A stretch of DNA of 32,000 bases from Candidatus Jettenia ecosi (GTDB taxonomy: Bacteria > Planctomycetota > Brocadiia > Brocadiales > Brocadiaceae): NCBI GenBank assembly GCA_005524015.1, contig SULG01000002.1, forward strand, positions 4,221 through 36,220. The letters run 5' to 3'. The notes beneath the pieces were generated by a model, which searched no databases, was not told where the DNA came from, and saw only the letters and a program-made list of their open reading frames with translations. Of this stretch, positions 8,862 to 32,000 are shown one piece after another (position 1 is the stretch's first letter; the number at the start of each line of letters is the position of its first letter). A program made the position numbers and the translations under genes.

Positions 8862-8970
8862 TTTTGTTGTCTAATAGCGGGACACAGATTAACACAGATA
8901 AGTACAAAATGTAGCGAAAGTTGATCTTTGGTTGTATGCAAATGTAGGGAACATACGGAACCTTAAACAT

Positions 8971-9476: not shown

Positions 9477-9864
9477 CAAGTAGTTAATCTGACAAAGCAA
9501 AATGTATGTTATGCATACAGTGTTGTATGATTTAAAAACAGATAAACATACATATAAAGATTTTATTTTAGAATACTTATGATAATTTATAGGTAAAACA
9601 GTATGAACAACATACAGAAAGTACGAATAAAAATTTCTCTTTATGGAAAAGGGATACTCCAATAAATTAAATACATGTATTGTAATAAGTTATATTTTAA
9701 ATAGTTATACATTATCCTTATAAAAATTTTCACATAAGGCATTTCCTGGCAAGTACATTGCTTATGATGGGATGGCAATGTTATACAGCATTAAAAATAA
9801 TTTTGCATGGTATCTTGTTTCGGGTGTCTGTTTGAAGAAATAAACAAGATTAATAAAAGATGCA

Positions 9865-11822: not shown

Positions 11823-11912
11823 AAATCTCAAACAGGGAAAAGTATAAAGGGTATCGATGTGATTTTTATAGATAAGTTTTGACAATACTTACTAACGCCA
11901 GAGGGAACTTTC

Positions 11913-13391
11913 ATGAAAAAACTCGTACTGATTAATCCTCATCCGATTGGAAATGTTGGGGAGGAAAATGTATCTGTGCTAAATCAAATGCCGGTGAATC
12001 TCGGTTATCTTAAGAGATTGACACCGCGGCATTGGCAGGTTGATATTATTGATGAGACCCAGGAGCTTGCTATTGATAGCGCAGGAAATATTACTTTCAG
12101 TGGGGCAGATCTGGTGGGTATTACATCGGTGAGTTATCAGGCTCATCGCGCCTACCAAATAGCTACTGCCTGCAAAAAAAAAGGCATACCTGTCATTATG
12201 GGCGGAATTCATGCTACGAGCTATCCGGAAGAGGTTGCAAAATATGTGGATTGTGTTGTTACGAGAGAGGCTATAACAATCTGGGAAAAGATACTGGCTG
12301 ATTTTGAAAATGGTGTTCTTCAAAAGAGATACGATGGTAATCTGACACCTATGGAGCTTTATCGTGATCTGAGGTCCGATAGGGAATATTTGAAGAATAA
12401 ATACAAATATAGATATTCAGGCATCATAACGACGGCCGGATGCCCGTTTAGTTGCGAGTTTTGTTCTGTTCCTCAATTTCAGGGTAAAAAATATCGGGAA
12501 AGGCCTGTTGAAGACGTCCTGGATGAATTAGAATCCATTAAGGGTCAATATCGTGGCCTGATATTAACGGATGAAAACTTTTATGGACATAGTAAAAAAT
12601 CCAACGAGCGTGTTCGTGCACTTTTCAAGGGTATGGTAGAAAGAGGTATTTATCAAAACTGGTTTGGTTTTACCTCTCTTAATATTTACTCAGATGACGA
12701 AACCCTTGAATATATGGTCAGGAGTGGATGCGTTGGGATGCTTATTGGAATTGAATCTATCAACGAAGAAGCCCTGAAAACCATGAATAAGAATGTGAAT
12801 TTGCGTATCTCAATAGAGAAGTACTTCGAGGCAATTGCTAACATCCGTAAACACGGTCTTGCTGTATGGGGGACTATGGTTTTCGGAAACGATGCCGATA
12901 CGCCTGAGACATTTAAGCAAGTTGCTGATTTTGTCTTGGATTCTCATGTAGATATTATGACGTGCGGTATTTTATGTCCATTTATTAACACGCCGCTTTA
13001 TCATAGATTAAAAAGCGATAATAGACTTTTTCGGACAAATTTTCCTGAGGACTGGAAGTACTATACATCTCATCACCTTACCTATATCCTCAAAAATATG
13101 TCTCTCCAGGAGCTTATTGATGGCTTTCAATATCTCTATGATAAAATTTATGCTACGGAGGTGTTACGGCAAAGATTCCAGAATGCTAAGGACGTGTTGA
13201 GTAAGAATATGAATGCCGCTATGTTTGCATTCAGGGTCAATTTAGATTGGCAGAACGTGTATCAGCACCTGATCCAAAATTTAAAAGCATTGCAGGTATC
13301 GGGATTTTACGATAGGGTCCTGAAGCTCTATAATGAATCGGAAAGACAAGGGGAAAAAACATCATTGACGCCAATTGAGGTCCCATCATAA
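11913..13391 (+). CDS. B12-binding-domain radical SAM enzyme (class B rSAM)
   Basis: N-terminal flavodoxin-like B12-binding-type segment ('DLVGITSVSYQAHRAYQIATACKKKGIPVIMGGIHAT'). Radical SAM cluster motif CxxxCxxC in 'AGCPFSCEFCSVPQF'. SD AGAGGGA upstream. Confidence 0.85.
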   Translation: MKKLVLINPHPIGNVGEENVSVLNQMPVNLGYLKRLTPRHWQVDIIDETQELAIDSAGNITFSGADLVGITSVSYQAHRAYQIATACKKKGIPVIMGGIHATSYPEEVAKYVDCVVTREAITIWEKILADFENGVLQKRYDGNLTPMELYRDLRSDREYLKNKYKYRYSGIITTAGCPFSCEFCSVPQFQGKKYRERPVEDVLDELESIKGQYRGLILTDENFYGHSKKSNERVRALFKGMVERGIYQNWFGFTSLNIYSDDETLEYMVRSGCVGMLIGIESINEEALKTMNKNVNLRISIEKYFEAIANIRKHGLAVWGTMVFGNDADTPETFKQVADFVLDSHVDIMTCGILCPFINTPLYHRLKSDNRLFRTNFPEDWKYYTSHHLTYILKNMSLQELIDGFQYLYDKIYATEVLRQRFQNAKDVLSKNMNAAMFAFRVNLDWQNVYQHLIQNLKALQVSGFYDRVLKLYNESERQGEKTSLTPIEVPS

Positions 13392-13450
13392 AACCTGTCA
13401 ACGATGGAAGCTTATTCTCATGGTCTTTTTACGTTATATTAACAATTAAC

Positions 13451-13501
13451 AGGTCAACGTATCCACGGGAGATGAGTGAATACGTTGACCTCTGTTGTTT
13501 T
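13451..13501 (+). terminator. Rho-independent-type terminator after the radical SAM gene
   Basis: Perfect 12-bp stem AGGTCAACGTAT (13451-62) / ATACGTTGACCT (13480-91) with a 17-nt loop, followed by the T-rich CTGTTGTTTT. Confidence 0.5.
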
Positions 13502-13762
13502 ACCAGTTAAAATAGATATACCAGTAGAGTTCATAATTACAGAAAATAGCGCACGGGCAAGAATGGAGCATAGGTTATGCCATCCACAAAGGATAAATCA
13601 AGAAGCAGGGAGTTTGATATAATCGCTTTTATCGAGGCACTGAAAGAGGTTTACGATTACTTTCCCGAGTATAAAGGAAAAAGAATAATTCCCATATTTT
13701 CTTCCCTTTCTATTTTACTTGAGTAATTACAATTTTAACAACCTACGAATGAGGTATTATTT

Positions 13763-14995
13763 CTGATTACTGAAAAAAATAAGTCAAAAGTAGTAATTAC
13801 CGGATTAGGACTGGTTACCCCTGTTGGGATAGGTGTTCAAAAAAGTTGGGAATCTTTTATCCATGGCTGCGATGGAGCTAATGAGATGAAGTCGTTCGAT
13901 ACCTCCCGGTACAAGGTTCACCGTTCTTGTGAGGTAAAGGATTTTCATCTGGATGTTGAATTAGAGAACCAGATAAAGGAAAACACCATCCATAAATATG
14001 TTTATTATGCAGCCCGGGAGGCGTTACAGGAAAGCGGTTTGTTGCATGATAAGAGCAGTTTTGATAAGGAACGTTTTGGTATTGCTATGGGAACCTTAGC
14101 TGCTGAATTAACACCTCATGAAAGACTTTTACGATTACATGCCTCAAAAAAAGATAACGGTTTTGATAAGATTGTCGCTGCTGTTTATCCTCCGAATTCT
14201 ATTACGAATATCCTTGCTCAATATTTTCACTTTGAAGGGCCTGCCATGGTCTCACTGAATGCCTGTTCTTCAGGTAATCATGCCATTGCATGGGCTTACG
14301 ACCTTCTTAGAGAAAATAAGGTAGATGTTGTAATGGTTGGTGGAGGGGATATGATCCCTCAAACGGAATTTACTCATTTCCATAATCTCAAAGCGCTTGC
14401 TCCTGAACACTGTCAGCCTTTTGATAAAAACAGGCAAGGACTCATGATTGGAGAAGGAGCCGGTATCTTGATCATGGAACGTTATGAATTTGCCAGGAAA
14501 AGGGGGGCGGTTATTATTGCTGAAATGGCGGGTTATGGATTAAGCTGTGATGGATTCCATATGACAGCGCCTCATCCGGAAGGTGAAGGTGCTGTAAAAT
14601 GTATGGGTGATGCGCTAAAAATGGCAAGGCTTTCTCCGTCTGATATTGGCTATATCAATGCACATGGTACGGGTACGCCACATAATGATAAGGCGGAGAC
14701 TATTGCTATAAAACACTTGTTCAAAGATCATGCTTATACCATTCCCTGCAGTTCTACAAAATCCATGATAGGCCATCTTATGGGTGCAGCAAGCGCTGTA
14801 GAATCTGTTATATGCTGTCTTGCATTACGATACGGAATATTGCCTCCGACAATTCATTACCATACACCTGATCCGGAGTGTGACCTTGATTACTTACCTA
14901 ACAGGGCGCGGGAGTTAACCGTTCAGCATGTTTTAAATAACTCATTTGCCTTTGGTGGTAATAACGCTACCACGATATTCAGTAAAATAGAATAG
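13763..14995 (+). CDS. Beta-ketoacyl synthase, FabF/KS-alpha type, catalytically complete
   Basis: Cys-His-His triad present: 'NACSSGNHAI', 'FHMTAPHP', 'NAHGTGTPHNDKAE', plus 'KSMIGHLMGAA'. The track ORF starts at ATG 13886, but the same frame is open from 13739 and encodes the conserved KS N-terminus 'KVVITGLGLVTPVGIG'. No ATG/GTG/TTG is available, so the proposed start is CTG 13763 with SD GAGG 8 nt upstream. Confidence 0.85.
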   Translation: MITEKNKSKVVITGLGLVTPVGIGVQKSWESFIHGCDGANEMKSFDTSRYKVHRSCEVKDFHLDVELENQIKENTIHKYVYYAAREALQESGLLHDKSSFDKERFGIAMGTLAAELTPHERLLRLHASKKDNGFDKIVAAVYPPNSITNILAQYFHFEGPAMVSLNACSSGNHAIAWAYDLLRENKVDVVMVGGGDMIPQTEFTHFHNLKALAPEHCQPFDKNRQGLMIGEGAGILIMERYEFARKRGAVIIAEMAGYGLSCDGFHMTAPHPEGEGAVKCMGDALKMARLSPSDIGYINAHGTGTPHNDKAETIAIKHLFKDHAYTIPCSSTKSMIGHLMGAASAVESVICCLALRYGILPPTIHYHTPDPECDLDYLPNRARELTVQHVLNNSFAFGGNNATTIFSKIE

Positions 14996-15008
14996 TCTTT
15001 ACATACGT

Positions 15009-16238
15009 ATGAAACGAAGAGTCGTAGTTACAGGAATAGGGATTGTATCACCTCTTGGATTTACCAAAGAGGATTTTTGGAATAACCTCATAGAGGGAAA
15101 ATCGGGCATTGTGCCAATGACATCTCTTGATCTCTCACCCTATACATGCAAGCTTGGCGGAGAGGTTAGAGACCTTCATCCCGAGATCTATCTTGGCAAT
15201 AAAGGTTTGAAGTACTTACATAAAGGCACAAGGTTCTTAGGGTCGGCCACGAAGATGGCGCTTGATGATGCAAAGTTACCACAGGATAGTTCTTTATCGG
15301 ATCAAATAGGTGTGGTTATTGGGTCGTCTTTAGGCAATTTTTCTGAAACAACAGATTATTTCTATGAGATTATCAGAAATAATCCTTCAGAATTATCGCC
15401 GATGGTCAGCTATGATGTTGCATTAAATTCTTCAATTAACTACGTTTCTGTTACCTTTAAGATAAAAGGACTTGCACGGACTATATCAGCAGGTTTCACA
15501 TCAAGTGCGGATGCGATAGGGAATGCATATGGTATAATTCAGCGAGATATGGCCAAAGTTATTGTTGCGGGCGGAGTCGAGCAGATTTCCATCGATCTGT
15601 ATCTCATATTTTACCTGCGGGGTCTCTTATCAGGTCTCGATGGCACAAAGGAGGCTAGTTTACCCTTCGATAACAAAAGGAATGGTTTTGTAATGTCTGA
15701 AGGCAGTTATGTAGTTATTCTCGAAGAGCTTCAGCATGCTCTGGACAGAGGAGCGCCTATCTACGCAGAAGTAAGAGGCTTTGGAAATGCCTTTGTAGGT
15801 GGTAAAAATTATTCGAAAGAGGAAAGGGCGCGCCGTGTTGAAAGGGCTATGTACAGCGCCTTAGAAGAAGCAGATATTAAGAAAGAAACTATTGATCTTA
15901 TCAGCGCAAATGCAAATGGATGCAAGATGCAGGATGCTATTGAAGCACAGACAATCCAATCCTTTTATGGCTCAAAGGGCAATGATATTCCTATCTCGGC
16001 AATAAAATCGAATATGGGTGAATCTTATGGCGCCGCAGGCGCTGCTCAGTTTATTTCTGCTGTCATGTCTATACATACCGGCACAATACCCCACATCATC
16101 AATCACAACGAAAAAGATCCGAAAGTTAATCTGAATCTTATCCTGCAGAATCCCGTCAGGAAAGAAATTCAAAATGCAATGGTAAACACCATGGATTACG
16201 ATGGAAATAATTCATGTTTGGTGATAAGTAAATTATGA
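15009..16238 (+). CDS. Ketosynthase-like protein lacking the catalytic triad (chain-length-factor / KS-beta-like)
   Basis: KS fold throughout (MKRRVVVTGIGIVSPLG...). By eye against E. coli FabF, the active-site Cys position is Phe ('SAGFTSSADAIG'), the HxTAP His is absent ('GFGNAFVGGKNY'), the second His is Asn ('SANANGCKMQD') and the KSxxGH His is Glu ('KSNMGESYGAAG'). Confidence 0.85.
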   Translation: MKRRVVVTGIGIVSPLGFTKEDFWNNLIEGKSGIVPMTSLDLSPYTCKLGGEVRDLHPEIYLGNKGLKYLHKGTRFLGSATKMALDDAKLPQDSSLSDQIGVVIGSSLGNFSETTDYFYEIIRNNPSELSPMVSYDVALNSSINYVSVTFKIKGLARTISAGFTSSADAIGNAYGIIQRDMAKVIVAGGVEQISIDLYLIFYLRGLLSGLDGTKEASLPFDNKRNGFVMSEGSYVVILEELQHALDRGAPIYAEVRGFGNAFVGGKNYSKEERARRVERAMYSALEEADIKKETIDLISANANGCKMQDAIEAQTIQSFYGSKGNDIPISAIKSNMGESYGAAGAAQFISAVMSIHTGTIPHIINHNEKDPKVNLNLILQNPVRKEIQNAMVNTMDYDGNNSCLVISKL

Positions 16239-18259
16239 GCAAACTGTTTGAAGAAATACCTGTCGGTCAGATGACAGTAAAAAACAGGATAATCATGTCT
16301 GCCATGGATTTGGGATTTACTTCTGACGGTACAGTGAATGACCGGATTATTCGTTTTTACGAGGATCGTGCCAAAGGCGGTGTCGGCCTCATTGTTGTAG
16401 GCGGTTGTTATCCGGAAATAAATGGCAAGGTTTGGAAGAGTATTATTGGATTAGACAAGGATGAGCTTATTCCGGGATTACGAAGATTGACAGATACTGT
16501 TCATGCCTATTATCAGGTGCGTATCGCCGCTCAGTTGCTTCACGGTGGCCGCAGCGCCTCATCCTTCTTTACAAAAATGCAGCCTGTTTCTCCCTCTCCC
16601 CTGGTGCACAGAAGTATCAAACAGGAACCTCATGCCCTGACAGTTTCAGAGATTAAAACGGTTATCGGTAATTATGTCAGCGCAACCGTAAGGGCAAAAA
16701 AGGCCGGCTTCGATGCCGTGGAGCTTCACGGTGGCATGGGATACCTCATTAATCAATTCCTTTCAAAGGCTACTAATAAGCGTGATGATGAGTATGGTGG
16801 AAGTCTTGAAAACAGGGTTCGTTTTGCCAGGGAGATAATAATCGCCATAAAAGAAGCCGTTGGGAAGGACTACCCCATCATCTTTCGAATGTCAGGAGAT
16901 GATCTTGTTGCGGAAGGGCTCAAAATAGATGAGAGTCTGGAAATTGCCCGGATGTTAGAGCAATCAGGCGCTGATGCCTTTAACGTATCTCCTGGCTGGC
17001 ATGAAAGCAGAACGCCTATCCTGTCAATGATTATTCCACGGATGGCTTACACCTTTCTTTCACAAAGGATCAAATCATGCGTAAAAGTTCCGGTAATTGC
17101 CTCAGTCAGAATAAACGATCTTACCTTGGCCGGAGAGATCTTAGACAATGAGCAGGCAGACATGGTATCCCTTGGCAGACCACTCATCGTAGATCCTGAT
17201 CTGCCGAATAAATATAAAAACGGGCAATTTGATGATATCAGAACATGCATTGCTTGTAATCAGGGTTGCTTTGATTCTTTGCTGAATTTTAAATCCGTTT
17301 CCTGTACGTATAATGCAATGGCAGGGCATGAAGGTGAATATAAAATAATTCCATCGGGCAAACCGAAAAAGGTGGTGGTCGTAGGTGGAGGACCTGCCGG
17401 TATGGAAGCTGCCCGTGTTTTGGCATTACGGGGACACAGGGTTACCTTGTATGAGAGGAAAAAACACCTGGGTGGTCAATTACGGTATGCCTTTATTCCT
17501 CCGGGACGTGAAGAAATACAAAATATTATCACCTACCTGGAAAAACAGATTTTCAGGCTTAAGGTACATATAAAAATCGGAAAAGAGGCTGATTTACAAA
17601 CGTTACAGGAGGAACATCCCGATGCCATAGTTGTAGCCACGGGCGGAAATCCTGTCATGCCCGACCTTCCCGGTATAAAAGGGAAACAGGTGTATACAGC
17701 AAGTACTATATTGGAGGGAAAAGTTTTATCGGGAAAGGACGTGGTCATACTTGGCGGTGGAACTGTAGGATGTGAGGTGGCGTTGCACATAGCCAAACAG
17801 GGAACAATGAGGCCTGATGTGGCTTGTTTTCTGTTAAAACACAAGGTGCTCAGCGACAGGGATGTCATTGAATACACTACAAGGGGAAATAAGAGTGTCA
17901 CCATTCTGGAAATGAAAAAGAAAATAGGTGGCGGATTTGGTATTTCCACACGATGGGTTATTCTCAATGAATTAAAAGATGCGGGGGTAAAAGAAATAAC
18001 AGAAGTGCGGGTGAAGGAAATAATAAATACGAATGAAAATGGCAGAAAAACGGAAGGCGTCGTTTATGAAAAGGGCGGAAAAGATTATTTTATCAAGGCC
18101 GATACCGTTATTATTGCTGTCGGGTACAGTCCTTATAACGATATACAAAAGCAGATAGAAGGAAAGTTTCCGGAGATGTATTGTATTGGTGATTGCGTTA
18201 AGGTTCGCACTGTATTAGAAGCTATTCACGAAGGTTTTGAAGTCGCCTTAAAGATATAA
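16235..18259 (+). CDS. 2,4-dienoyl-CoA reductase (FadH)-like flavoprotein: OYE-type FMN barrel + 4Fe-4S + FAD/NAD(P)H domain
   Basis: 'ELHGGMGYLINQFLS...NKRDDEYGGSLENRVRF' (old-yellow-enzyme barrel). Cys cluster 'CIACNQGCFDSLLNFKSVSC'. Dinucleotide fold 'VVVVGGGPAGMEAA' and a second 'VVILGGGTVGCEVA'. The ATGA start overlaps the upstream stop. Confidence 0.9.
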   Translation: MSKLFEEIPVGQMTVKNRIIMSAMDLGFTSDGTVNDRIIRFYEDRAKGGVGLIVVGGCYPEINGKVWKSIIGLDKDELIPGLRRLTDTVHAYYQVRIAAQLLHGGRSASSFFTKMQPVSPSPLVHRSIKQEPHALTVSEIKTVIGNYVSATVRAKKAGFDAVELHGGMGYLINQFLSKATNKRDDEYGGSLENRVRFAREIIIAIKEAVGKDYPIIFRMSGDDLVAEGLKIDESLEIARMLEQSGADAFNVSPGWHESRTPILSMIIPRMAYTFLSQRIKSCVKVPVIASVRINDLTLAGEILDNEQADMVSLGRPLIVDPDLPNKYKNGQFDDIRTCIACNQGCFDSLLNFKSVSCTYNAMAGHEGEYKIIPSGKPKKVVVVGGGPAGMEAARVLALRGHRVTLYERKKHLGGQLRYAFIPPGREEIQNIITYLEKQIFRLKVHIKIGKEADLQTLQEEHPDAIVVATGGNPVMPDLPGIKGKQVYTASTILEGKVLSGKDVVILGGGTVGCEVALHIAKQGTMRPDVACFLLKHKVLSDRDVIEYTTRGNKSVTILEMKKKIGGGFGISTRWVILNELKDAGVKEITEVRVKEIINTNENGRKTEGVVYEKGGKDYFIKADTVIIAVGYSPYNDIQKQIEGKFPEMYCIGDCVKVRTVLEAIHEGFEVALKI

Positions 18260-18316
18260 CACATTTTTACCCCAGATAGACACAGAAAAGCAGAGATAAC
18301 AATAAGGGTTTTGACA

Positions 18317-19123
18317 ATGAAAGATATCCGCATGAATCGTGGTGATAACTCCGGTTATGATCACATTGAATTCGAGGAAATCAGGGCACATAATGGTAAG
18401 GCCATCGGTATTATTTATCTGAAAAAACCTCCACGAAACTCTATAGGCTCATGGCTTCTGGATGCCCTCTATGATAAGATGGATCAGTATGAGGGTGATG
18501 AAAGGGTGGGCGCTATTATTATTGCCAGTAAACTAAGGAGCGTCTTTAGTGACGGCGCTGACCGTGATGAGCTCTTTGGCGCCTGGATATCGGGTCTTGT
18601 AGCTGATAAGAACTATGAACGGTTTCATCGCGCTCATGAGATGTTTGTGGAGATTGAAAATTGTAAAAAGCCTGTTATTGCTGCCATAAACGGAGTTACG
18701 ATCGGCGCTGGTTTAGAGCTTGCTATGCTGTGTGACCTGCGTATTGCATCTGAACTTTCCTTTTTCAGCCTGCCAGAGGCAAAGCCTGAACTGAGTATTA
18801 TTCCCGGTCTTGGAGGCACGCAGCGTTTGCCCCGTTATATCGGTATGGCGCGTGCTAAGGAGATGCTGTTTTTAGGAAAGATGATCCGTGCTGAGACCGC
18901 TTTGGAATGGGGTCTCATTAATCAAATTTCACCTCATAAAGAGGTTATAGACCATGCCGTAGTTTTGGCAGAAACGCTGTTAGAACGAGATGCAAGGGCG
19001 CTCAAAGAGATGAAGAAATGTATCAACTTTGCGGGAGAGAACGATATCCTGAAAGGTATCGAATATGAGGTAGGTCTCTTTGCAGAGATGATGCGATTAA
19101 AATTTTCGAATAAGGGTAAATAA
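18317..19123 (+). CDS. Enoyl-CoA hydratase/isomerase (crotonase) family protein
   Basis: 'AAINGVTIGAGLELAMLCDLRIA' and 'LPEAKPELSIIPGLGGTQRL', so both catalytic Glu positions are present. ATG 18317 with SD AAGGG 8 nt upstream (the track starts at TTG 18311). Confidence 0.9.
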   Translation: MKDIRMNRGDNSGYDHIEFEEIRAHNGKAIGIIYLKKPPRNSIGSWLLDALYDKMDQYEGDERVGAIIIASKLRSVFSDGADRDELFGAWISGLVADKNYERFHRAHEMFVEIENCKKPVIAAINGVTIGAGLELAMLCDLRIASELSFFSLPEAKPELSIIPGLGGTQRLPRYIGMARAKEMLFLGKMIRAETALEWGLINQISPHKEVIDHAVVLAETLLERDARALKEMKKCINFAGENDILKGIEYEVGLFAEMMRLKFSNKGK

Positions 19124-19195
19124 GGCATATTTTTGAAAATGCTTCCCATATTTTTTACCTTATAAAGAAAAACGACTAATCAAAAGGAGGTAATT

Positions 19196-19939
19196 ATGGA
19201 GTTCAAGGATACCGTAGCAATTGTTACAGGTGGTACCCGGGGTATAGGCAAGTCAATCGCATTGGAACTGGCAAAAAACGGCTGCAACATAGCCTTTAAC
19301 TACAATAAAAATACCGATGCCGCCCATCTTCTGGTAAAGGAAATTGAATCGATGGGTACCAAGGCCATTTCTTTCCAGGTAAATGCAGCCAGTTTTGAAG
19401 GCGCTAAGAATATGGTAAAAGAAGTGAAGGATAGATTTGGAAAGATTGATTTCCTGGTAAATAATGCCGGTATTACCCGTGATAAACTCCTCGCTTTAAT
19501 GGCAGAGAATGATTGGGACGATGTTATCAATACCAATCTCAAAAGTGTTTATAATTTTTCTAAATCGGTGATTACCCAGATGATCAAACAAAAATCCGGT
19601 AGTATCCTGAATATAACCTCAGTAAGCGGAATAACGGGAATAGCGGGTCAGGTAAACTATTCTTCCTCCAAGGCCGGTATGATAGGATTTACCAAGGCCC
19701 TTGCCAAAGAGGTGGGGAAGGCAAATATTACGGTAAATGCGATAGCCTGCGGCTTTATTGAAACAGATATGACGGCAGTTTTACCTCAGGAATATAAGGA
19801 TAAAATGATTGAGATGATTCCGGTAAGAAGATTTGGCACACCTGATGATGTTGCCAAAGCCGCGATTTTCCTGTTATCAGACCATGCTAAATACATTACC
19901 GGTCATGTAATTAGTGTCGATGGTGGTTTAGCAATGTAG
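19196..19939 (+). CDS. fabG: 3-oxoacyl-[ACP] reductase (SDR family)
   Basis: 'TGGTRGIGKSIA', 'NNAGITRD', catalytic 'YSSSKAG' and FabG-like length. Strong SD AAGGAGG. Confidence 0.9.
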   Translation: MEFKDTVAIVTGGTRGIGKSIALELAKNGCNIAFNYNKNTDAAHLLVKEIESMGTKAISFQVNAASFEGAKNMVKEVKDRFGKIDFLVNNAGITRDKLLALMAENDWDDVINTNLKSVYNFSKSVITQMIKQKSGSILNITSVSGITGIAGQVNYSSSKAGMIGFTKALAKEVGKANITVNAIACGFIETDMTAVLPQEYKDKMIEMIPVRRFGTPDDVAKAAIFLLSDHAKYITGHVISVDGGLAM

Positions 19940-26524: not shown

Positions 26525-27745
26525 GTGAATAATCTAATAAAATATTTTAAGACAAGATCCTTCGTAGTTCTTTTTGCAGTTTTTTTCATAGCTGCCCATC
26601 CAAATGCTTATTCTTTTGACTATCACGAGCCAGTTCTCTCAATTACCAACTTTCTTGATTCACTCTCGTATGATTATAAAGGTTTTAACATAAAACTTAC
26701 AGGAATATCAGTTGGTGAGACCTATGATGATAATGTTACCTTTCAAAATGAGAATGAAGAAGGCGATTTTATAACGGATGCGAGTATCGGATTCGGTATA
26801 AGCTACACCGGTAAAGCCAGTAGTTTTGCATTAATAGGTAATTTACACAGTCAGGCATTTATGAAGAATAGTGAATTCAACAATATCTCTGAAGATATTG
26901 ATTTTAGTTTTAATCATGAATTCTCAGAAAATGATCGCTTGAGTTTAAAAAATGTCTTTGTTTATTCAGAGGCTCCTCTCTTTTTCCGGGATGATTTTTT
27001 TGATGAGCAGTTTGTAAGAGAAGGGGGAAGATTTAAACATTATACAAATCGTTTCAATATTGACTATACAAAAGATATCAGCAGACAGATTTCTGTTACC
27101 GTGCGATATATGAATGATCTAAATGCATTTTCTGAGGTTGATATACAAACTTCATATCTCAATAGTGGAGGTTTTGAAATAGGTTACTTATTAAGCTCTG
27201 CTACCCGTTTCTCTGTATCGTACGATATCCTTCACAGACAATTTGAAAATGCTGAGGATGCCTTAGTAAACACCATTACTACGGGAATAAGGCAATATAT
27301 AACGAAAAAGCTTTATTTTGATGGTGGAGTTGGTGTCGATTTCATAGATTCTTTTGACGATAAAAACTACACCAGACCGCTTTATTTCGCATCAGTTACG
27401 TATGAAGTAGATGAAAGAACGAGTGCAGGCATTTCATTCTTAAAGAAAAATAGTACCAATGCTTATACCGCAGATATTTTTAATGAGTGGAGGACAGCAA
27501 TTAACTTCGAACGGCAGATTTTAGAAAGATTTGGATGCGCATTTTCTGTTTTTTATGGCGATGGTGAATATGTTTCTTCAAATTTCCAAAGAGAACTGTT
27601 TGGAGTAAAAACAGGCTTAACTTATGATATAAATAAGAATTTGCGTGCGGATCTAACCTATTCCTATTCAGATTTGAGCTCTAATATTCAGACTACTGAA
27701 TACGAAAAAAATACTATTTTCTTAGGATTAATTGCAGAGTTTTAA
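26525..27745 (+). CDS. Outer-membrane beta-barrel protein of the polysaccharide locus
   Basis: GTG start. Signal peptide 'FVVLFAVFFIAAHPNAYS'. Alternating hydrophobic beta-strand pattern rich in Y/F/S/T/N. C-terminal 'FLGLIAEF' with terminal Phe. Confidence 0.7.
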   Translation: MNNLIKYFKTRSFVVLFAVFFIAAHPNAYSFDYHEPVLSITNFLDSLSYDYKGFNIKLTGISVGETYDDNVTFQNENEEGDFITDASIGFGISYTGKASSFALIGNLHSQAFMKNSEFNNISEDIDFSFNHEFSENDRLSLKNVFVYSEAPLFFRDDFFDEQFVREGGRFKHYTNRFNIDYTKDISRQISVTVRYMNDLNAFSEVDIQTSYLNSGGFEIGYLLSSATRFSVSYDILHRQFENAEDALVNTITTGIRQYITKKLYFDGGVGVDFIDSFDDKNYTRPLYFASVTYEVDERTSAGISFLKKNSTNAYTADIFNEWRTAINFERQILERFGCAFSVFYGDGEYVSSNFQRELFGVKTGLTYDINKNLRADLTYSYSDLSSNIQTTEYEKNTIFLGLIAEF

Positions 27746-27799
27746 CATAATAAAAAATTAATTAAAGACTCTATATACAAAATTCCAATTCCCTTTGTC

Positions 27800-27865
27800 A
27801 TTCCCAGGCAAGTGGGAATCCGGATAAAATAACATCTTCCATCACGGACAAACGGAGTTTGTCCG
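27800..27865 (+). terminator. Two short hairpins after the OMP gene (ATTCCCA-N6-TGGGAAT; CGGACAAA-N5-TTTGTCCG)
   Basis: 7-bp stem at 27800-27819 and 8-bp stem at 27845-27865, 55-120 nt after the stop. There is no clear U-tract. Confidence 0.35.
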
Positions 27866-27979
27866 CACCATTCTACATATCAATTTACCTATTTATTGAT
27901 TGTGAACCCTTTGAGCATAAAAAGTTCTTCCTAAAATATTCTCCATAAAATCCTCAAAATTTTTACTTTTCCTTACTGT

Positions 27980-28027
27980 GTGACATGTCACGCCTTTGTG
28001 ACATGTCACAGAAGCGTGACATGTCAC
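27980..28027. promoter_or_regulatory. Cluster C: three perfect 12-bp palindromes GTGACATGTCAC at exact 18-bp spacing (candidate UAS)
   Basis: Sites at 27980-27991, 27998-28009 and 28016-28027, all identical and perfectly dyad-symmetric. Confidence 0.65.
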
Positions 28028-28360
28028 GTTTTCTGTGTTTCATTTTGGTAATCTCTTGTTTTGTAATTATACCATCTATACTATTCTGCATGTATCCGTA
28101 AATCTAAATCCGTAAAAAAATACTATCGCAAGGCTATTTCCTGTGTCTATCCTTATGACATTGTTATACCTTGTCTATTTTCCTGCCATAATTATCCTTA
28201 CTTCATATGAAAACAACCCACCTGGATAACATCTTATTTTTCATTATTCTCTCCTGCCACAATAAATGACACTCATTTCTCTATGTTTTTTACGATCTAA
28301 AGGTGTACAGAAGTTTACTCTTAAAAATAAAATAATCAATTTCCACATTCCTTGAGATAT

Positions 28361-28376
28361 TGGCATATATTTTTCT
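28361..28376 (+). promoter_or_regulatory. Sigma-54-like promoter TGGCAT-N5-TTTCT upstream of the EPS operon
   Basis: GG at 28362-63 and the -12 C at 28375 have canonical 12-nt spacing. The extended sequence ATTGGCATATATTTTTCTAT mirrors 5322-5341. Lies 37-70 nt upstream of the candidate starts of the sugar-transferase gene. Confidence 0.45.
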
Positions 28377-28412
28377 ATATACACTCTCAAGTAATTAAAA
28401 AAGATTTTTTCA

Positions 28413-29852
28413 ATGTGTTTTTCACCGTGCCATATAAATAGTGCTATGTTAAAAGAACATTATGTCATATTCAGAGGCCTGATGACGTTTTCAGACATGT
28501 GTATAGTCTTTGCTACTTTCTTTTTAGGATTTTACTTAAGAAAACATCCTAATGGTTATTATCAGATGAGTGATTATCTTATCCTTATACCTATACTTCT
28601 TATTATTTGGGGAGTCCTTTTATACTGCTTTGGAATGTATAACTCCTTCAGAACCAAACATATATCAGATGTCTTATTTATTGTAATCGAAGCAGCTCTT
28701 GTTGGATGTAGTCTTTTTGGAAGCTTCATCTTCATCACAAAAATGAATTCCGTTAGCAGACTCCATATCGTTTACTCATTTCTTTTCGCAGTAATGTTCA
28801 TAAGTATTGAAAAAATTGCTCTCATACAATTTTTTCGGTATCAACGGAAAAAAGGTTTTAATACAAGGAATATTTTAATCGTTGGAACAGGTGTAAGGGC
28901 GCAACATCTTATCAATTTAATTAACAATCATCCTGAATGGGGAATCAGGATAATCGGTCTCGTCGATAATGATACAACAAAAATAAACACGATGATCTGT
29001 GGATACAAAGTAATCGGATCCTTTAACGATGTAAGTGATATTCTTCATAATTGTGTTGTTGACGAGGTTATATTTGTTGTTCCGCGCTCATGGCTCAGCA
29101 AGATTGAAAAGATAATGTCTATGTGTGAGATTGAGGGATTAAAGGTAAGTGTGGCGCTTGATTTATTTGAACTTAAATTATCAAAGGCAAAATATAGTAA
29201 TTTGGAAAAGCTTCCTTTGCTTACCTTTGAGAGTACACCCGATAAATTATTGCATCTTTTTATTAAGCGATTATTTGACTTAGGTATTTCTACAACTGCC
29301 CTTGTCTTATCATCGCCGGTTTTTGCGTTAGCTGCTATAACGGTAAAAATGACATCAAGAGGGCACATCTTTTTTAAACAGCAAAGATGTAGCCTGAATG
29401 GCAGAACATTTACCATGTATAAGTTCAGAACAATGGTTGAAGATGCCGAAAGCAAACTCAACGACCTTCTTAAATATAATGAAATGAAAGGCCCTGCCTT
29501 TAAAATGAAAAACGATCCCAGAGTAACGAGGGTTGGGAAATTTTTAAGAAAATTTAGTATAGATGAACTACCACAATTATGGAGTGTATTTAAAGGTGAT
29601 ATGAGCCTGGTGGGCCCAAGGCCTCCCATTCCGAATGAAGTAAGTAAATATGAGCCCTGGCAACGAAGACGGCTCAGTATGCGACCAGGTTTAACATGCC
29701 TTTGGCAGGCATGCGGAAGAAATAAAATAACTGATTTTAACGAATGGATGCGGCTGGACTTAACGTATATTGATAACTGGTCGCTCTGGCTTGATTGTAA
29801 AATATTATTAAAAACACTACCGGTAGTGTTGTTTGGAGTAGGAGCAAAATAG
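28413..29852 (+). CDS. Polyprenyl-phosphate hexose-1-phosphate transferase (bacterial sugar transferase, priming glycosyltransferase)
   Basis: N-terminal TM helices and a central Rossmann-like segment 'ILIVGTGVRAQ'. C-terminal catalytic domain 'KRLFDLGIS', 'YKFRTM', 'DELPQLWSVFKGDMSLVGPRPP'. The start may be the internal Met at 28446. Confidence 0.9.
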   Translation: MCFSPCHINSAMLKEHYVIFRGLMTFSDMCIVFATFFLGFYLRKHPNGYYQMSDYLILIPILLIIWGVLLYCFGMYNSFRTKHISDVLFIVIEAALVGCSLFGSFIFITKMNSVSRLHIVYSFLFAVMFISIEKIALIQFFRYQRKKGFNTRNILIVGTGVRAQHLINLINNHPEWGIRIIGLVDNDTTKINTMICGYKVIGSFNDVSDILHNCVVDEVIFVVPRSWLSKIEKIMSMCEIEGLKVSVALDLFELKLSKAKYSNLEKLPLLTFESTPDKLLHLFIKRLFDLGISTTALVLSSPVFALAAITVKMTSRGHIFFKQQRCSLNGRTFTMYKFRTMVEDAESKLNDLLKYNEMKGPAFKMKNDPRVTRVGKFLRKFSIDELPQLWSVFKGDMSLVGPRPPIPNEVSKYEPWQRRRLSMRPGLTCLWQACGRNKITDFNEWMRLDLTYIDNWSLWLDCKILLKTLPVVLFGVGAK

Positions 29853-29935
29853 AATCAAAATTGGAAAATCAAATACCGAATAGTTTTAATCACGCTTTGA
29901 TTTTTGAATTACTCTTTCATGAGGGGGTAAAGAAA

Positions 29936-30775
29936 TTGAAAAACATATTCATAAGTTTGTTGATATTTTCTAGTGTGTTTATAGCAATGGCATTCAATTA
30001 TGCTGATGAATCTGCAAAACAATATACCGTTGGGGTAGACGATGTACTTGAGATAAGTGTGCTAGGACATGATGAACTAAAAACGGTAGCACATGTCGCA
30101 TCAGATGGGGCAATATCTTTTCCCTATGTAGGAGTGCTTTATGTGAAAGGCATGAGCCTTTCAGAAATAGAAAAGGAACTATCGAAAAAGCTCTCCGGCG
30201 GTTACATAAAGTATGCAGTAGTATCGGTAACCCTATCAAGTTATAAGAGCATGAAGTTTTTTGTGTACGGTGAAGTCGGAAGCCCGGGAAGGTTTGATCT
30301 CGAAGATAATATCACTGTATTAAAAGCTATTTCAACAGCCGGCGGTATTACTCCAGACGGCCTTTATGGCAATGTAAAACTAAGGAGGAAACAGAAAACT
30401 AAACCCGGATACAAGGAAATCAATATAAATCTAAAAAACACAAAAGAGAGTCATTTACATGCAGATATGCCTATTGAAAGTGAAGATATAGTGATTGTAG
30501 AGCGTAGTAATAGTTTTTTTGTCTATGGTGAGGTTTTAAAACCAGGTAAATTTATTCTTGAGGAAAATACTACAGTCCTTAAGGCTATATCTCTTTCCGG
30601 CGGTTTTGCAAAATATGGTTCTCCTGACAGGGTTAAGATACTCAGGACAGAACAGGGCAAATCAGGATATAAAAGTATCAAAGTTGATATGAAAGGCGCT
30701 GTAAACGGTCAAATAGGAAAAGATATTCTTATAGAACCAGAAGATATAGTAATTGTATTAGAAGGAATTCTTTAG
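29936..30775 (+). CDS. Polysaccharide export protein (Wza-like: Poly_export + two SLBB domains)
   Basis: 'YTVGVDDVLEISVLGHDEL...DGAISFPYVG', with two repeats of 'FFVYGEV..PG.F.LE.N.TVLKAIS..GG'. The track starts at TTG 29861. TTG 29936 follows SD GAGGGGG and begins a signal-peptide-like 'KNIFISLLIFSSVFIAMA'. Confidence 0.85.
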   Translation: MKNIFISLLIFSSVFIAMAFNYADESAKQYTVGVDDVLEISVLGHDELKTVAHVASDGAISFPYVGVLYVKGMSLSEIEKELSKKLSGGYIKYAVVSVTLSSYKSMKFFVYGEVGSPGRFDLEDNITVLKAISTAGGITPDGLYGNVKLRRKQKTKPGYKEININLKNTKESHLHADMPIESEDIVIVERSNSFFVYGEVLKPGKFILEENTTVLKAISLSGGFAKYGSPDRVKILRTEQGKSGYKSIKVDMKGAVNGQIGKDILIEPEDIVIVLEGIL

Positions 30776-30784
30776 GGGATTACC

Positions 30785-32000
30785 ATGAATTTGAATTTTT
30801 CAGGAAGTACGTTACGAGACTATCTCAGGATTATATTCGGGCACAAGACTGTAATCATCAATACGCTGGTGATCATCATGATAAGTGTCTTAATTGGTCA
30901 GGAGCTTAAGACTCCCGTTTACCAAGCTCAGGTTAAGATGTTAGTTTCGGCAGAAAAACAATTTGAGAGCCCCTATTATAGAGTTTTGGAAGGCTATCAA
31001 CATATGACTCAGAATGAGATTGTATTCTCAAATCCTGTAATTGAACGTGCTGTTAAAGTGCTTAAGCTCCACGAGCGCCCGAGTGATTATGAACTAAATT
31101 ACTGTTCTGTGTTTAAAGCATGGTTAATTCATGTAAAAGACAAATACCTGGTGAATTTAAAGCCCAACTGGCTGACGGAACTCCAGCAGAAGAAACTGGA
31201 ATCAAAACATATTTCACCTGAACAAGAGCGGGCGTATGCCTTCCGGATGAATGTTGAAAATTTAAAAACTACCATAACCGTTGAACCAATAAAAGATACA
31301 AACATATTTACCATAGGCGCTACTGATTTTGATCCTGTAGCAGCAGCTACGATTGCCAATGTGGTAAGCCGCTCATATATTATTTTTGATCTTGAACAGC
31401 AATTGGCGCAACTCCAACTGCAATATGAGAAAAAACATCCTATTATCATACAATTGAGAAATGAAATTGATAAGATGACGAGAAATCTTGCAGGCGATAC
31501 ACTTCCCGATTTAGAGGCAATCGGGCCTGCAACTGTTAAGGTTATTGAGCAAGCACAGATCCCTCTCAGACCAATAGGAATAAGCAAGCGTATTACTATG
31601 GTTATTGCGCTTTTTATGGGTTTATTTGTGGGAGTTATGCTTACATTTGGGCTTGAATATATTGATCATACCCTTAAGTCGCCACTTGATGTAGAGACAT
31701 TTCTCAATGTACCGCTTTTGGGTTCTCTCCCACGGAAAGGATTTAAAGATAAAAAGTTAATTAAGGATAAAAGGCGGACAACTCCTCTTGCGCAGTTTTA
31801 TCACAACCTTTCCGATCGGGTACAAATATTGATGAAAGAGAAAAATGTAAGGTCTATTTTGATAACAGCCTCTTCACCCTCTGACGGCTCTACAACTATT
31901 ATCGCTAATCTGGGTAATTTCTTATCCAACAAAGCAGGCCATAAAGTACTTATCATAGATGCTAACTTAAAAACTCCCACTATGCATAAAATATTTAAAA
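30785..32000 (+). CDS. Wzz/GumC-type chain-length determinant fused to a BY-kinase-like P-loop domain (3' end outside window)
   Basis: Hand translation from ATG 30785 (SD AGGGGA) stays open to the window end. TM1 'TVIINTLVIIMISVLIG', coiled-coil periplasmic region, TM2 'ITMVIALFMGLFVGVMLTF', then 'ILITASSPSDGSTTIIANLG...KVLIIDANL'. It is not in the ORF track because no stop is reached. Confidence 0.85.
   Translation, partial: MNLNFSGSTLRDYLRIIFGHKTVIINTLVIIMISVLIGQELKTPVYQAQVKMLVSAEKQFESPYYRVLEGYQHMTQNEIVFSNPVIERAVKVLKLHERPSDYELNYCSVFKAWLIHVKDKYLVNLKPNWLTELQQKKLESKHISPEQERAYAFRMNVENLKTTITVEPIKDTNIFTIGATDFDPVAAATIANVVSRSYIIFDLEQQLAQLQLQYEKKHPIIIQLRNEIDKMTRNLAGDTLPDLEAIGPATVKVIEQAQIPLRPIGISKRITMVIALFMGLFVGVMLTFGLEYIDHTLKSPLDVETFLNVPLLGSLPRKGFKDKKLIKDKRRTTPLAQFYHNLSDRVQILMKEKNVRSILITASSPSDGSTTIIANLGNFLSNKAGHKVLIIDANLKTPTMHKIFK

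Follow-up and report, generated by a model that had tools for sequence, protein, structure and literature searches.

Three identical palindromes stand in front of a polysaccharide export operon of Candidatus Jettenia ecosi, and the question is what they do there and which protein would read them. In the window, by which we mean the whole 32,000-nt stretch of DNA analysed, GTGACATGTCAC was found without mismatch at 27980-27991, 27998-28009 and 28016-28027, with a centre-to-centre phasing of exactly 18 bp, as a sequence-only reading of this DNA had described. This array (27980-28027, strandless) is a candidate enhancer (UAS) of the exopolysaccharide (EPS) operon, and we put at about 72% the probability that the palindromes are the enhancer for a pair of two-component activators of the NtrC class (genes at 2783-4486 and 5458-7164).

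The dyad array and the genes around it

With up to two mismatches, GTGACATGTCAC had 7 matches in the window against 0.67 expected from shuffled sequences, none of which reached 7. The relaxed dyad GTGNCANGNCAC gave 8 sites (15 strand-matches) where 0.08 would be expected; all of them are intergenic and fall into three clusters (5045/5079, 7198/7215/7231 and 27980/27998/28016). The core GTGACATGTCAC sits inside a 14-bp dyad, TGTG-N-CATG-N-CACA, the central CATG of which is 96-100% invariant. Across clusters the spacing between dyads is variable (16-18 and 22-23 bp) and the structure within the dyad is constant; the outer dyads of the clusters are 32-36 bp apart, and in clusters other than the EPS ones the central dyad is degenerate. 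No Rfam match to a structured RNA was obtained anywhere in the window.

Downstream of the array, on the + strand, the first EPS gene (28413-29852) encodes a priming polyprenyl glycosylphosphotransferase (PGT; TIGR03025, 437.5 bits vs a cutoff of 295.55; Bac_transf) with 99% identity to the sugar transferase of Ca. Jettenia sp. AMX1. It is followed by a Wza-like outer-membrane polysaccharide export protein (29861-30775, +; Poly_export and SLBB domains) and a Wzc-like polysaccharide co-polymerase/tyrosine-autokinase (30782-32000, +), which shows the chain-length determinant and the start of the kinase domain and is interrupted by the window end. These domain matches bear out the earlier assignment of the three genes. 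The PGT, the Wza-like protein and the co-polymerase with its kinase start place the locus with the Wzx/Wzy-dependent (group 1-like) export loci, and the syntenic locus of Loosdrechtia runs on into glycosyltransferases and Wzy_C. Upstream of the array lies the gene of an outer-membrane β-barrel (OMP; 26525-27745, +; BBP2_2, with a weak match to TIGR03016), and the order OMP-then-PGT is kept in four Brocadiaceae lineages.

Membership of the PEP-CTERM/XrtA type of EPS locus was rejected, all NCBIfam models being below cutoff: PrsR (TIGR02915, 354.7 and 362.7 bits for the two activators vs 502.6), the PEP-CTERM PGT (TIGR03013, 236.7 vs 393.35), the export protein (TIGR03027, 121 vs 180), the OMP (TIGR03016, 57.4 vs 90.85) and the chain-length determinant (TIGR03007, 49.2 vs 278.85, for a protein incomplete at the window end). 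The window and the Loosdrechtia EPS locus (L164) showed neither an exosortase nor PEP-CTERM proteins.

The activators and their association with the dyads

The two activators, EBP1 (2783-4486, +) and EBP2 (5458-7164, +), share the architecture REC-PAS-Sigma54_activat-HTH_8. They are 77% identical to each other (67% in the receiver domains) with an identical HTH recognition helix, and EBP2 is 97% identical to a protein of Ca. Jettenia caeni. The σ54 AAA+ domain (PF00158) was matched with E = 2e-71 and 5e-72, the C-terminal Fis-type HTH (PF02954, HTH_8) is present in both, and GAFTGA (residues 336/337) and the Walker A motif GESGTGKE are intact in both paralogs, so both look functional. Their best NCBIfam and PDB similarities were to AtoC, NtrC, Aquifex NtrC1/NtrC4 and ZraR. 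The gene at 42-1343 (+) encodes a PAS histidine kinase that may partner EBP1, EBP2 or both; every syntenic locus has a kinase ahead of the EBP. The gene rpoN is not in the 32,000-nt window, and its presence in the genome is implied solely by the intact GAFTGA activators.

Two dyad clusters flank EBP2; they had been overlooked in the sequence-only reading and are weaker than the EPS triplet. The cluster at 5045-5090, a candidate enhancer before EBP2 and possibly autoregulatory, contains dyads at 5045 and 5079 and a central half-site GTGACA at 5066. A candidate σ54 promoter of EBP2 (5322-5341, +; ATTGGCACAATTTTTTCTAT; PWM score 13.7) lies 233 bp past this cluster and 135 bp ahead of the start. 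Cluster and promoter element are both kept in J. caeni (L156) and in Loosdrechtia (L168), where the element reads TGGCACAAGTTTTTCTATG. The other candidate enhancer (7198-7242) follows directly after the EBP2 stop, with dyads at 7198, 7215 (weak) and 7231, and stands ahead of a gene for a PAS-HD-GYP c-di-GMP phosphodiesterase (7704-8861, +; likely true start TTG 7704, mechanical ORF start 7662). No good −24/−12 element for this cluster was found in the window; a tentative one with a weak −24, TGGTCTGTTTTTTGCT, is located at 7663-7678 (+), and its J. caeni equivalent, TGGCCTGTTTTTTGCT, scores 14.2. The clusters flanking EBP2 are the strongest link between motif and activator within the window.

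The association was followed through other genomes in both directions. A motif-only scan of 185,579 GTDB genomes with a pattern of 17 specified bases returned at least 119 loci, most of them chance matches. Among the matches listed, those in Geothermobacter (L080), Malonomonas (L009), Desulfobulbaceae (L118) and Geobacter (L066), all of Desulfuromonadota/Desulfobacterota, each adjoin a full-length REC-PAS-AAA+-HTH ortholog (48-55% identity), and a Gemmatimonadota locus (L008) carries a dyad pair directly 3' of another σ54-AAA+/HTH_8 gene. Conversely, all loci chosen by EBP protein identity (J. caeni, B. sinica, Scalindua, Wunengus) have dyads just past the EBP stop, a position also occupied in the Geothermobacter, Geobacter and Desulfobulbaceae loci. 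Downstream at the Geobacter locus is an operon that includes cheW. The recognition helix LLG[MI]SRRT[IL]YR[KH] is common to all motif-linked orthologs; a Nitrospiraceae ortholog that lacks the motif reads MDRKTIYRK instead, and neighbouring unrelated EBPs also differ. By this genome comparison we showed that the motif is specifically associated with the REC-PAS σ54 activator family. The proposal that the dyads are sites of the activators thus gained from a two-way, cross-phylum co-occurrence and from a recognition helix that tracks the motif.

The same palindrome also occurs in unrelated contexts, in arrays of Sorangium and in Providencia, with no EBP ortholog within 8 kb. The dyad arrays at three further loci (L109, L015 and L075) were discarded as unrelated coding or cyanobacterial repeats.

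Downstream of many clusters in Brocadia and Desulfobacterota loci, −24/−12-like elements are found at about 110 bp, and TGGCAYRYATTTTGAT is conserved downstream of clusters in Brocadia, Wunengus and Scalindua. When a stringent −24/−12 pattern was applied to 241 kb of anammox DNA, 6 of the 11 matches followed a dyad cluster at 256-378 bp, where position would predict a share of 4.6%. Because the half-site pattern of the dyads, TGNCAC, also admits the −24 hexamer TGGCAC, the association of promoters with dyads may look stronger than it is.

The EPS spacer and its candidate promoter

Footprinting of the window against J. caeni was uninformative, the intergenic DNA being about 90% identical. The OMP-PGT spacer barely aligns between Jettenia (L136), Loosdrechtia (L164) and a third Brocadiaceae MAG (L167), and only two blocks in it are conserved: the three dyads, which all three genera hold at a phasing of exactly 18 bp, and ATTGGCAYATNTTTTTCTATA, 51-107 bp before the ATG. 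The second block contains TGGCAY-N5-TTTTCTATA, which is present in all three, 319-354 bp downstream of the dyads. Between these loci the spacers separating the dyads vary and the dyads do not. In Loosdrechtia the three dyads read GTGCCTTGTCAC, GCGACATGTCAC and GTGACATGTCAC. From these alignments we showed that the dyads and the promoter element are under purifying selection across genera.

In the window the second block corresponds to a candidate σ54 (−24/−12) promoter of the EPS operon at 28359-28378 (+; ATTGGCATATATTTTTCTAT; GG at 28362-28363), with a predicted transcription start at about 28387. Its TGG is 334 bp past the last dyad and 52 bp ahead of the ATG at 28413. It had been read as a near-duplicate of the element before EBP2, and 17 of the 20 positions are indeed identical to ATTGGCACAATTTTTTCTAT. 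Taken by itself, this −24/−12 match is not significant: its score in a crude PWM (11.9) is at about the 95th percentile of random 400-bp windows, and the −24/−12 consensus with up to two mismatches had 17 matches in the window vs 12 expected. The earlier call of a −24/−12 promoter can be kept with a qualification. The TGGCAY −24 and the spacing are canonical and are conserved as a block in three genera, but the −12 reads TTTC and not the canonical TTGC. In σ54 promoters (consensus TGGCAC-N5-TTGCW) no part is more conserved than the GC of the −12, and TTTC has T in place of G−13. Variants that stand in place of TTGC are TTTC in the Jettenia type and TTGA in the Brocadia type. Enhancer and promoter are about 330 bp apart, where 80-150 bp is usual, and the IHF consensus had no match in six enhancer-promoter spacers, that of the EPS operon included. 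A σ70 scan of 27700-28450 found 6 candidates vs 3.7 ± 1.8 expected and thus no enrichment, and TTGGCA/TATATA was rejected as a −35/−10 pair, its spacer of 10 nt being too short.

The dyads have a limited distribution at EPS loci. They are missing from the PGT loci of Brocadia (L165) and Kuenenia (L166), and they are absent beside metagenomic PGT relatives of 51-65% identity (L120-L133); among the closer PGT orthologs (71-77% identity) they are kept in Loosdrechtia and in the third Brocadiaceae MAG and not in Brocadia or Kuenenia. A species-specific EPS link is ruled out by this conservation; on the loci compared, the link is lineage-specific, limited to Jettenia, Loosdrechtia and a single further lineage of Brocadiaceae. 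At other loci the motif has mostly signalling genes for neighbours, so that EPS appears to be an add-on and not the core of the regulon. The earlier suggestion that the activators drive the EPS operon is supported for these lineages, where motif and activator co-occur and the spacer blocks are conserved, and does not extend to Brocadia and Kuenenia, where the link is missing.

Alternative readings and the proposed enhancer

The arrays might instead be primarily intrinsic (Rho-independent) terminators or REP-like elements of the upstream genes (OMP, EBP2). A terminator scan called 27997-28028 together with TTTTCTGTGT (13-bp stem), and the RNA of the EPS array folds with −34.4 kcal/mol (z −6.0), the other clusters of the window with −24.8 and −25.0, and the array past the B. 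sinica EBP with −41.3 kcal/mol as a perfect 22-bp hairpin followed by CUUUUU. Each cluster of the window is 3' of a + strand gene, that at 7198 just 34 bp past the EBP2 stop, and at the EPS loci all three genera keep a T-run past the last dyad and have no A-run to match it on the left. Terminators conserve structure, however, and here a 14-bp sequence with its CATG core is kept at three loci of one genome and again across Planctomycetota, Desulfuromonadota/Desulfobacterota and Gemmatimonadota. Substitutions in the dyads are non-compensatory, as in the Loosdrechtia triplet given above and in a locus with two identical non-palindromic dyads (L030). A terminator is not expected between divergent genes, where three of the clusters lie (L096, L099 and L159), and most Brocadiaceae clusters are 320-431 bp from the downstream start, with a distance to the upstream stop that ranges widely (20-870 bp) and fits a terminator poorly. 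Moreover, a hairpin has two arms, but three phased dyads are conserved. We regard a primary terminator function as improbable; that the array is an enhancer with a secondary role as terminator or insulator is conceivable, and we put it forward tentatively. A triplet that arose by chance or by recent local tandem duplication, without function, would explain the regular period of 18 bp and the identical copies. Yet the observed count was reached in 0 of 100 shuffles, in keeping with the earlier view that such a triplet is unlikely by chance. The two 6-bp spacers of the EPS triplet (GCCTTT vs AGAAGC) are unlike each other and TRF did not report the array as a tandem repeat, so the triplet is not a recent duplication. 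The triplet in the same phase in three genera with barely alignable flanks effectively refutes this reading, to which we assign a negligible probability.

It is also to be considered that the dyads are operators of another protein, of the CRP/FNR type or a repressor oligomerising on three sites, and that the EBP genes are mere targets. EBP1 and EBP2 are assigned to the dyads by sequence association, the TGTG…CACA arms resemble the half-sites of CRP-type sites (TGTGN-N4-NCACA), and the palindromes of Sorangium and Providencia evidently can be used by other proteins. A CRP/FNR-type site was nevertheless rejected, the central CATG being invariant, unlike the free centre of such sites. The triplets and other clusters lie 140-430 bp upstream of genes and not at −41.5, −61.5 or overlapping the promoter, and the conserved elements past them are of the −24/−12 and not the −35/−10 type. 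Across phyla the motif adjoins specifically the genes of a single orthologous EBP family, in which the recognition helix changes with the presence of the motif, and no other regulator gene was consistently near the clusters in the loci compared. We give this explanation little credence.

The reading we prefer is thus an enhancer bound by EBP1 and EBP2; within it we infer that the EBPs bind the dyads and assemble there as hexamers, that transcription depends on σ54, and in which direction regulation runs. One EBP dimer would occupy each TGTG-N-CATG-N-CACA dyad through its C-terminal Fis-type HTH, the expected recognition motif being TGTGNCATGNCACA. Three dimers on dyads 18 bp apart could nucleate a hexameric AAA+ ring, as in NorR. 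On phosphorylation of the receiver, and perhaps PAS input, the ring would loop over about 330 bp of DNA with 67-72% A+T, contact σ54-RNA polymerase at TGGCAT-N5-TTTC (28361-28376) and open the promoter of the PGT-Wza-Wzc genes. From the weaker triplets the same activators may drive EBP2, by positive autoregulation, and the PAS-HD-GYP phosphodiesterase gene. With activators shared between the EPS and HD-GYP genes, EPS export would be tied to c-di-GMP turnover. A more elaborate picture, which we consider rather doubtful, would combine mixed hexamers of the two paralogs with their diverged receivers on the array, array RNA acting as an EPS-insulating terminator, a class of σ54 promoters with weakened −12 (TTTC/TTGA), specific to positions downstream of this enhancer and extending from Planctomycetota to Desulfuromonadota, and an activator duplication that coincided with the recruitment of EPS in Jettenia and Loosdrechtia. 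If mixed hexamers do form, two kinase inputs would be integrated at one enhancer.

By analogy the array is most likely a NorR-like, three-dimer type of NtrC-class enhancer with an undescribed site sequence. Activators of the NtrC (GlnG)/AtoC type share REC, σ54 AAA+ and HTH_8 with EBP1 and EBP2. The 32-36 bp between outer dyads is similar to the spacing of the two strong NtrC sites at glnAp2, and an activator gene directly upstream of its target promoter is also known from atoSC-atoDAEB. EBP1 and EBP2 differ by the PAS domain that separates REC from AAA+, by the motif and by a third, central dyad, and their presumed targets are signalling and EPS genes, as opposed to nitrogen or acetoacetate metabolism. 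SypG of Vibrio fischeri is a two-component σ54 activator of the syp polysaccharide locus that acts via upstream enhancers. Like PrsR, it is a σ54 response regulator on a polysaccharide locus, but there is no orthology and the enhancer sequence and geometry differ. In E. coli, NorR requires all three dyad sites of norVW, which assemble three dimers into a hexamer (PMC2831303). NorR is likewise a σ54 bEBP with a Fis-type HTH and three consecutive dyads within about 50-66 bp, conserved in many genomes. Its core is GT-N7-AC (11 bp), compared with GTG-N-CATG-N-CAC (12-14 bp) in Jettenia; its sensor is an NO-sensing GAF and not a response regulator, compared with REC-PAS; and it uses IHF between enhancer and promoter, whereas the Jettenia spacer has no IHF consensus and is longer. 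Orthology to NorR was rejected on the REC-PAS N-terminus and the scores with NF003451 (325-326 bits vs a cutoff of 476). GlrR/QseF binds TGTC-N10-GACA sites, three of them upstream of a σ54 promoter, at glmY/glmZ (PMC3045617). Adjacent dyads at 18-bp phasing spell a GlrR-like TGTC-N10-GACA across the spacer; this reading was rejected because the spacing between dyads varies and the unit is the abutting dyad. GlrR has no PAS domain, and the GlrR model scores the EBPs below cutoff. The motif string was not found in the literature searched, and EBP1 and EBP2 are below every NCBIfam equivalog cutoff, in agreement with the earlier statement that no named system corresponds. The σ54 regulome paper on D. 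vulgaris gives one REC+PAS EBP (DVU0774) and no motif, and a survey of σ54 regulons from 2025 contains no Brocadiales-specific information. Control of the cell exterior by σ54 is a general theme (PMC3162934; PMC1569441), into which σ54 activators of polysaccharide loci fit.

In conclusion, a conserved and unstudied two-component σ54 activator appears to be tied to a defined site, three copies of TGTG-N-CATG-N-CACA; it would be connected, by way of this site, with the operon for polysaccharide export, with a c-di-GMP phosphodiesterase and with its own gene. Next to that of NorR, the array would be a second natural bEBP enhancer with three dyads in strict phase, and it comes with a set of candidate promoters with non-canonical −12 elements. 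Anammox bacteria are not yet in pure culture and are not genetically manipulable; the same activator-motif pair occurs in relatives of Geobacter and Desulfuromonas, which are genetically tractable. The control of anammox exopolysaccharide and of granule and biofilm formation is a practical issue for wastewater reactors.

Dyad clusters and their candidate activators

The palindrome GTGACATGTCAC was found without mismatch at 27980, 27998 and 28016, as the sequence-only reading had reported, and with up to two mismatches it occurred seven times in the window (0.67 expected; shuffles far below). The relaxed dyad GTGNCANGNCAC gave eight sites (0.08 expected; shuffles again far below), all within three intergenic clusters, namely the exopolysaccharide (EPS) triplet and two clusters missed by that reading, one upstream of the activator gene EBP2 (5045/5079, central half-site 5066) and one beginning 34 bp past the EBP2 stop codon (7198/7215/7231). 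Since the EPS triplet has two unrelated 6-bp spacers, GCCTTT and AGAAGC, and no tandem repeat was called there by TRF, the identity of its dyads is not due to recent duplication.

The window encodes a PAS histidine kinase (42-1343), the REC-PAS-σ54 AAA+-HTH_8 activators EBP1 (2783-4486) and EBP2 (5458-7164), a PAS-HD-GYP and a PAS-GGDEF protein, a B12-radical-SAM/ketosynthase lipid cluster, hemA, ccsA, thiF with a class-V aminotransferase (NifS-like) gene, an outer-membrane β-barrel (OMP, 26525-27745), a priming glycosylphosphotransferase (PGT, 28413-29852, above the TIGR03025 cutoff), a Wza-like exporter and a co-polymerase (PCP) with the start of a tyrosine-kinase domain, incomplete in the window. 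The source is an anammox planctomycete, since the best protein matches are Jettenia (EBP2, 97%, Candidatus Jettenia caeni; PGT, 99%, Ca. Jettenia sp. AMX1). EBP1 and EBP2 share 77% identity over their whole length and have diverged most in the receiver domain (67%), and the GAFTGA and Walker A motifs are intact in both. The lipid cluster (11427-19939) lies immediately 3' of the regulator genes, a synteny shared with Brocadia, Wunengus and J. caeni; it encodes two ketosynthases, an OYE/FAD oxidoreductase, an enoyl-CoA hydratase, an SDR and a B12-binding radical SAM protein that weakly matches the ladderane-type TIGR04072 model.

Several repeats were also observed. An intergenic hairpin element of ~80 bp, REP/MITE-like in look (GTCATTGCGAGGGTATTGTCCGAAGCAATCTCTT … GATTGCTTCGG…CCCTCGCAATGAC), is present three times, at 1456-1540, 4803-4884 and 8962-9041, the copies being 84-97% alike. 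The long non-coding stretch between kinase and EBP1 holds 5.9 copies of the 28-bp tandem repeat TTTAGAAAAGGGGGGAACGAAGGATGAG (1878-2042), bracketed by complementary C-rich/G-rich inverted arms (1869-1894 and 2070-2095). Two related hairpin-like elements of ~150 bp (1582-1732 and 2295-2436) are direct copies, 71-77% alike, with common arms GGGCAAGGC…CAGGCTGTCCGAGAAT and no Rfam match.

Association of motif and activator in other genomes

One genome per GTDB species was scanned with the loose paired-dyad pattern CATGNCAC-N4-24-GTGNCATGNCAC, which gave at least 119 loci; most of those listed are chance matches. Among the matches listed, Brocadiaceae recurred, with the common architecture aaaagt-GTGNCATGNCAC-ac..gt-[gtgacgtcac]-..gt-GTGNCATGNCAC-actttt, and four loci came from Desulfuromonadota/Desulfobacterota (Geothermobacter L080, Malonomonas L009, Desulfobulbaceae L118 and Geobacter L066). 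Chosen by the DNA motif alone, all four carried a full-length activator ortholog adjoining it (48-55% identity to the window activators over ~560 residues), and in three the cluster lies directly 3' of the activator stop codon, as at window 7198. This co-occurrence is not chance, since a family present at 1-2 copies per genome is expected in only ~0.2% of random 8-kb loci. On a Gemmatimonadota contig (L008), a dyad pair directly follows another σ54-AAA+/HTH_8 gene.

When loci were fetched by activator protein identity instead, dyads were found immediately 3' of the activator in J. caeni (L156), Brocadia sinica (L157), Scalindua (L159) and Wunengus (L160). The order kinase, EBP, PAS-HD-GYP, lipid cluster is kept in the Jettenia, Brocadia and Wunengus loci, not in Scalindua. 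The recognition helix LLG[MI]SRRT[IL]YR[KH] occurs in every motif-linked ortholog, is identical between EBP1 and EBP2 and differs in unrelated neighbouring EBPs; the Nitrospiraceae ortholog L162, with no motif at the stringency used, reads MDRKTIYRK. Both dyad pools (35 from Brocadiales, 17 others) gave the same consensus, TGTG-N-CATG-N-CACA, with the central CATG 96-100% invariant. Adjacent dyads are spaced 16-18 bp (mode 18) and outer pairs 32-35 bp (mode 34).

Tandem duplication of the activator (window 2783-7164; L156 7502-11704; Loosdrechtia L168 3546-7704) was seen only in Jettenia and Loosdrechtia among the compared loci, and in this small sample the same lineages carry the EPS enhancer; a single activator gene is present in the loci of Brocadia, Wunengus and Scalindua.

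The palindrome also occurs in unrelated contexts. Sorangium spp. carry arrays in which 3-5 identical cGTGACATGTCACg units, separated by near-identical spacers, repeat every 21-23 bp (L043 1846-1923, L095 4064-4144, L040 1489-1542, L007 6122-6177, L100 4951-5006), at many places in several genomes and beside unrelated genes; no EBP ortholog lies within 8 kb, and they are possibly another protein's binding array or a repeat family. In Providencia alcalifaciens (L107 2890-2933, L114 778-822), cGTGACATGTCACg pairs 32-33 bp apart adjoin a P2-type phage replication gene A in one case and a cation-diffusion-facilitator gene in the other, contexts unrelated to bEBPs. Five GTGGCATGGCAC copies, spaced 18 bp apart on a contig of a 'Gammaproteobacteria' MAG (L109 1680-1781), were rejected as a false positive for the enhancer pattern and appear, judged by sequence alone, to be part of an in-frame hexapeptide-coding tandem repeat.

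Candidate promoters, the EPS locus and the terminator explanation

Downstream of the EPS triplet, ATTGGCATATATTTTTCTAT (28359-28378) is identical at 17/20 positions to 5322-5341 in front of EBP2, the near-duplication noted before. Such candidate promoter elements lie 51-135 bp before start codons and are likely σ54 dependent, as both the −24 hexamer and the GG-to-(T)C spacing follow the canonical form and the block is retained in different genera. The pattern TGGCAY-N5-TT[GT]C has 11 matches on both strands of 241 kb of anammox DNA, six of which (~3 independent promoters) have a dyad cluster 256-378 bp upstream, vs 4.6% expected by position. Further −24/−12-like elements occur ~110 bp past clusters in several Brocadia and Desulfobacterota loci, including both sides of a divergent gene pair in L099. 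Counting against the σ54 reading, the −12 is TTTC or TTGA instead of TTGC, the single-site promoter score is only at about the 95th percentile of background, and TGGCAC is itself a permitted dyad half-site. A σ70 reading was rejected, with TTGGCA and TATATA just 10 nt apart and no enrichment in a σ70 scan of the region. After the post-EBP cluster, TGGCAYRYATTTTGAT, with TTGA at −12 rather than TTGC, is kept in Brocadia (L157 12045), Wunengus (L160 12124) and Scalindua (L159 12068), and the TTGAT ending recurs in L096, Geothermobacter L080 and Nitrospiraceae L162, which suggests that the promoters downstream of the enhancer include a subclass whose −12 element is weakened.

The best canonical σ54 match in the window, TGGCAAGTACATTGCT (9747-9762; one mismatch, crude PWM 15.5, 99th percentile), precedes the PAS-GGDEF gene (9865-10857) by 118 bp; because no dyad cluster is nearby, it may be served by another activator or by the distant 7198 enhancer. 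The mechanical ATG of the HD-GYP gene (7662) overlaps the −24/−12-like element TGGTCTGTTTTTTGCT; in J. caeni (L156, ~12230-12770) an insertion of ~540 bp directly follows this element, and the gene starts at the TTG equivalent to window 7704.

The proposal that the activators drive the EPS operon was compared across relatives. In Loosdrechtia L164, synteny with the window is complete between the MIase (muconolactone isomerase-family) gene and PGT, and the dyads are GTGCCTTGTCAC / GCGACATGTCAC / GTGACATGTCAC at 7528, 7546 and 7564; those of a third Brocadiaceae MAG (L167; order OMP-PGT-Wza-PCP) are GTGACATGTCAC / GTGACGTGTCAC / GTGTCATGTCAC at 2988, 3006 and 3024. The 18-bp phasing is exact in both, and both have TGGCAC-N5-TTTTCTATA 319-354 bp past the dyads and 77-107 bp before the ATG. 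In a three-way alignment, the dyads and the TGGCAC-type element are the sole conserved blocks of the OMP-PGT spacer. Neither was found at a Brocadia PGT locus (L165; same OMP-PGT order) or at the Kuenenia one (L166; different context), and among metagenomic PGT relatives only the near-identical L136 had dyads, those at 51-65% identity having none. The proposed link thus holds for Jettenia, L164 and L167 and not for these Brocadia and Kuenenia loci; judged by this conservation, it is real but lineage-specific. The candidate enhancer and promoter before EBP2 show the same pattern: Loosdrechtia retains the dyads, at 5407/5441, and has TGGCACAAGTTTTTCTATG 359 bp further on, within a spacer otherwise unlike that of Jettenia.

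Being palindromic, the arrays form RNA folds from either strand, with energies of −25 to −41 kcal/mol (z −2.3 to −8.6), and the last dyad is followed by a T-run, as transcription terminators would have. Termination is unlikely to be the main explanation: conservation across phyla extends from the structure to the sequence, the dyads differ from one another in non-compensatory ways, clusters lie between divergent genes (L096, L099, L159), and the distance to the downstream start is mostly 320-431 bp, vs 20-870 bp to the upstream stop. An additional role of the EPS array as OMP-gene terminator is plausible, since the T-run is on the downstream side only at the EPS loci of all three genera.

Proposed mechanism and relation to known systems

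As an enhancer, each dyad would bind one activator dimer. The outer dyads are ~3.3 helical turns apart, roughly on the same helix face, with the central dyad in between; the two strong NtrC sites likewise lie roughly on one face. EBP1 and EBP2, with a common recognition helix and their greatest difference in the receiver domain, would probably convey the inputs of two kinases to shared sites, possibly as mixed oligomers, by analogy with reported paralog pairs such as RedR1/RedR2. Three dyads would template a hexamer by analogy with NorR, whose three dyad sites are all required and whose three dimers make the ring (PMC2831303). The ring would reach σ54-polymerase over an A+T-rich spacer of ~330 bp, which gave no match to the IHF consensus.

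The system would work like a classical bEBP enhancer, most closely resembling the NorR three-site type. By defining features the activators are not members of the NorR, NtrC, AtoC, ZraR, GlrR or PrsR families, and both fall short of all NCBIfam equivalog cutoffs, among them those for AtoC, NtrC, ZraR, NorR and PrsR (PEP-CTERM regulator). The motif string was not found in a literature search, nor is the motif described in σ54-regulon papers on Desulfovibrio and across phyla, which agrees with the earlier failure to recognise a named system. What is new is that an uncharacterised family of activators is given a defined candidate site and regulon. Unusual features of the system are the strict 18-bp three-dyad phasing, the long enhancer-promoter distance, the non-canonical −12 elements and, possibly, the terminator duality of the arrays.

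Across taxa, motif-adjoining genes mostly encode signalling proteins (HD-GYP and GGDEF enzymes, other bEBPs, MCP, CheW and CheY-like proteins, one ECF σ factor), and in the Jettenia/Loosdrechtia group the EPS operon is a putative addition to this set. The overall picture is of a lifestyle (aggregation/motility) regulator. Not surprising in kind, the finding offers a concrete, testable regulator-site-target chain for EPS control in organisms not yet manipulable, and the activator-motif pair is also conserved in tractable Geobacter relatives.
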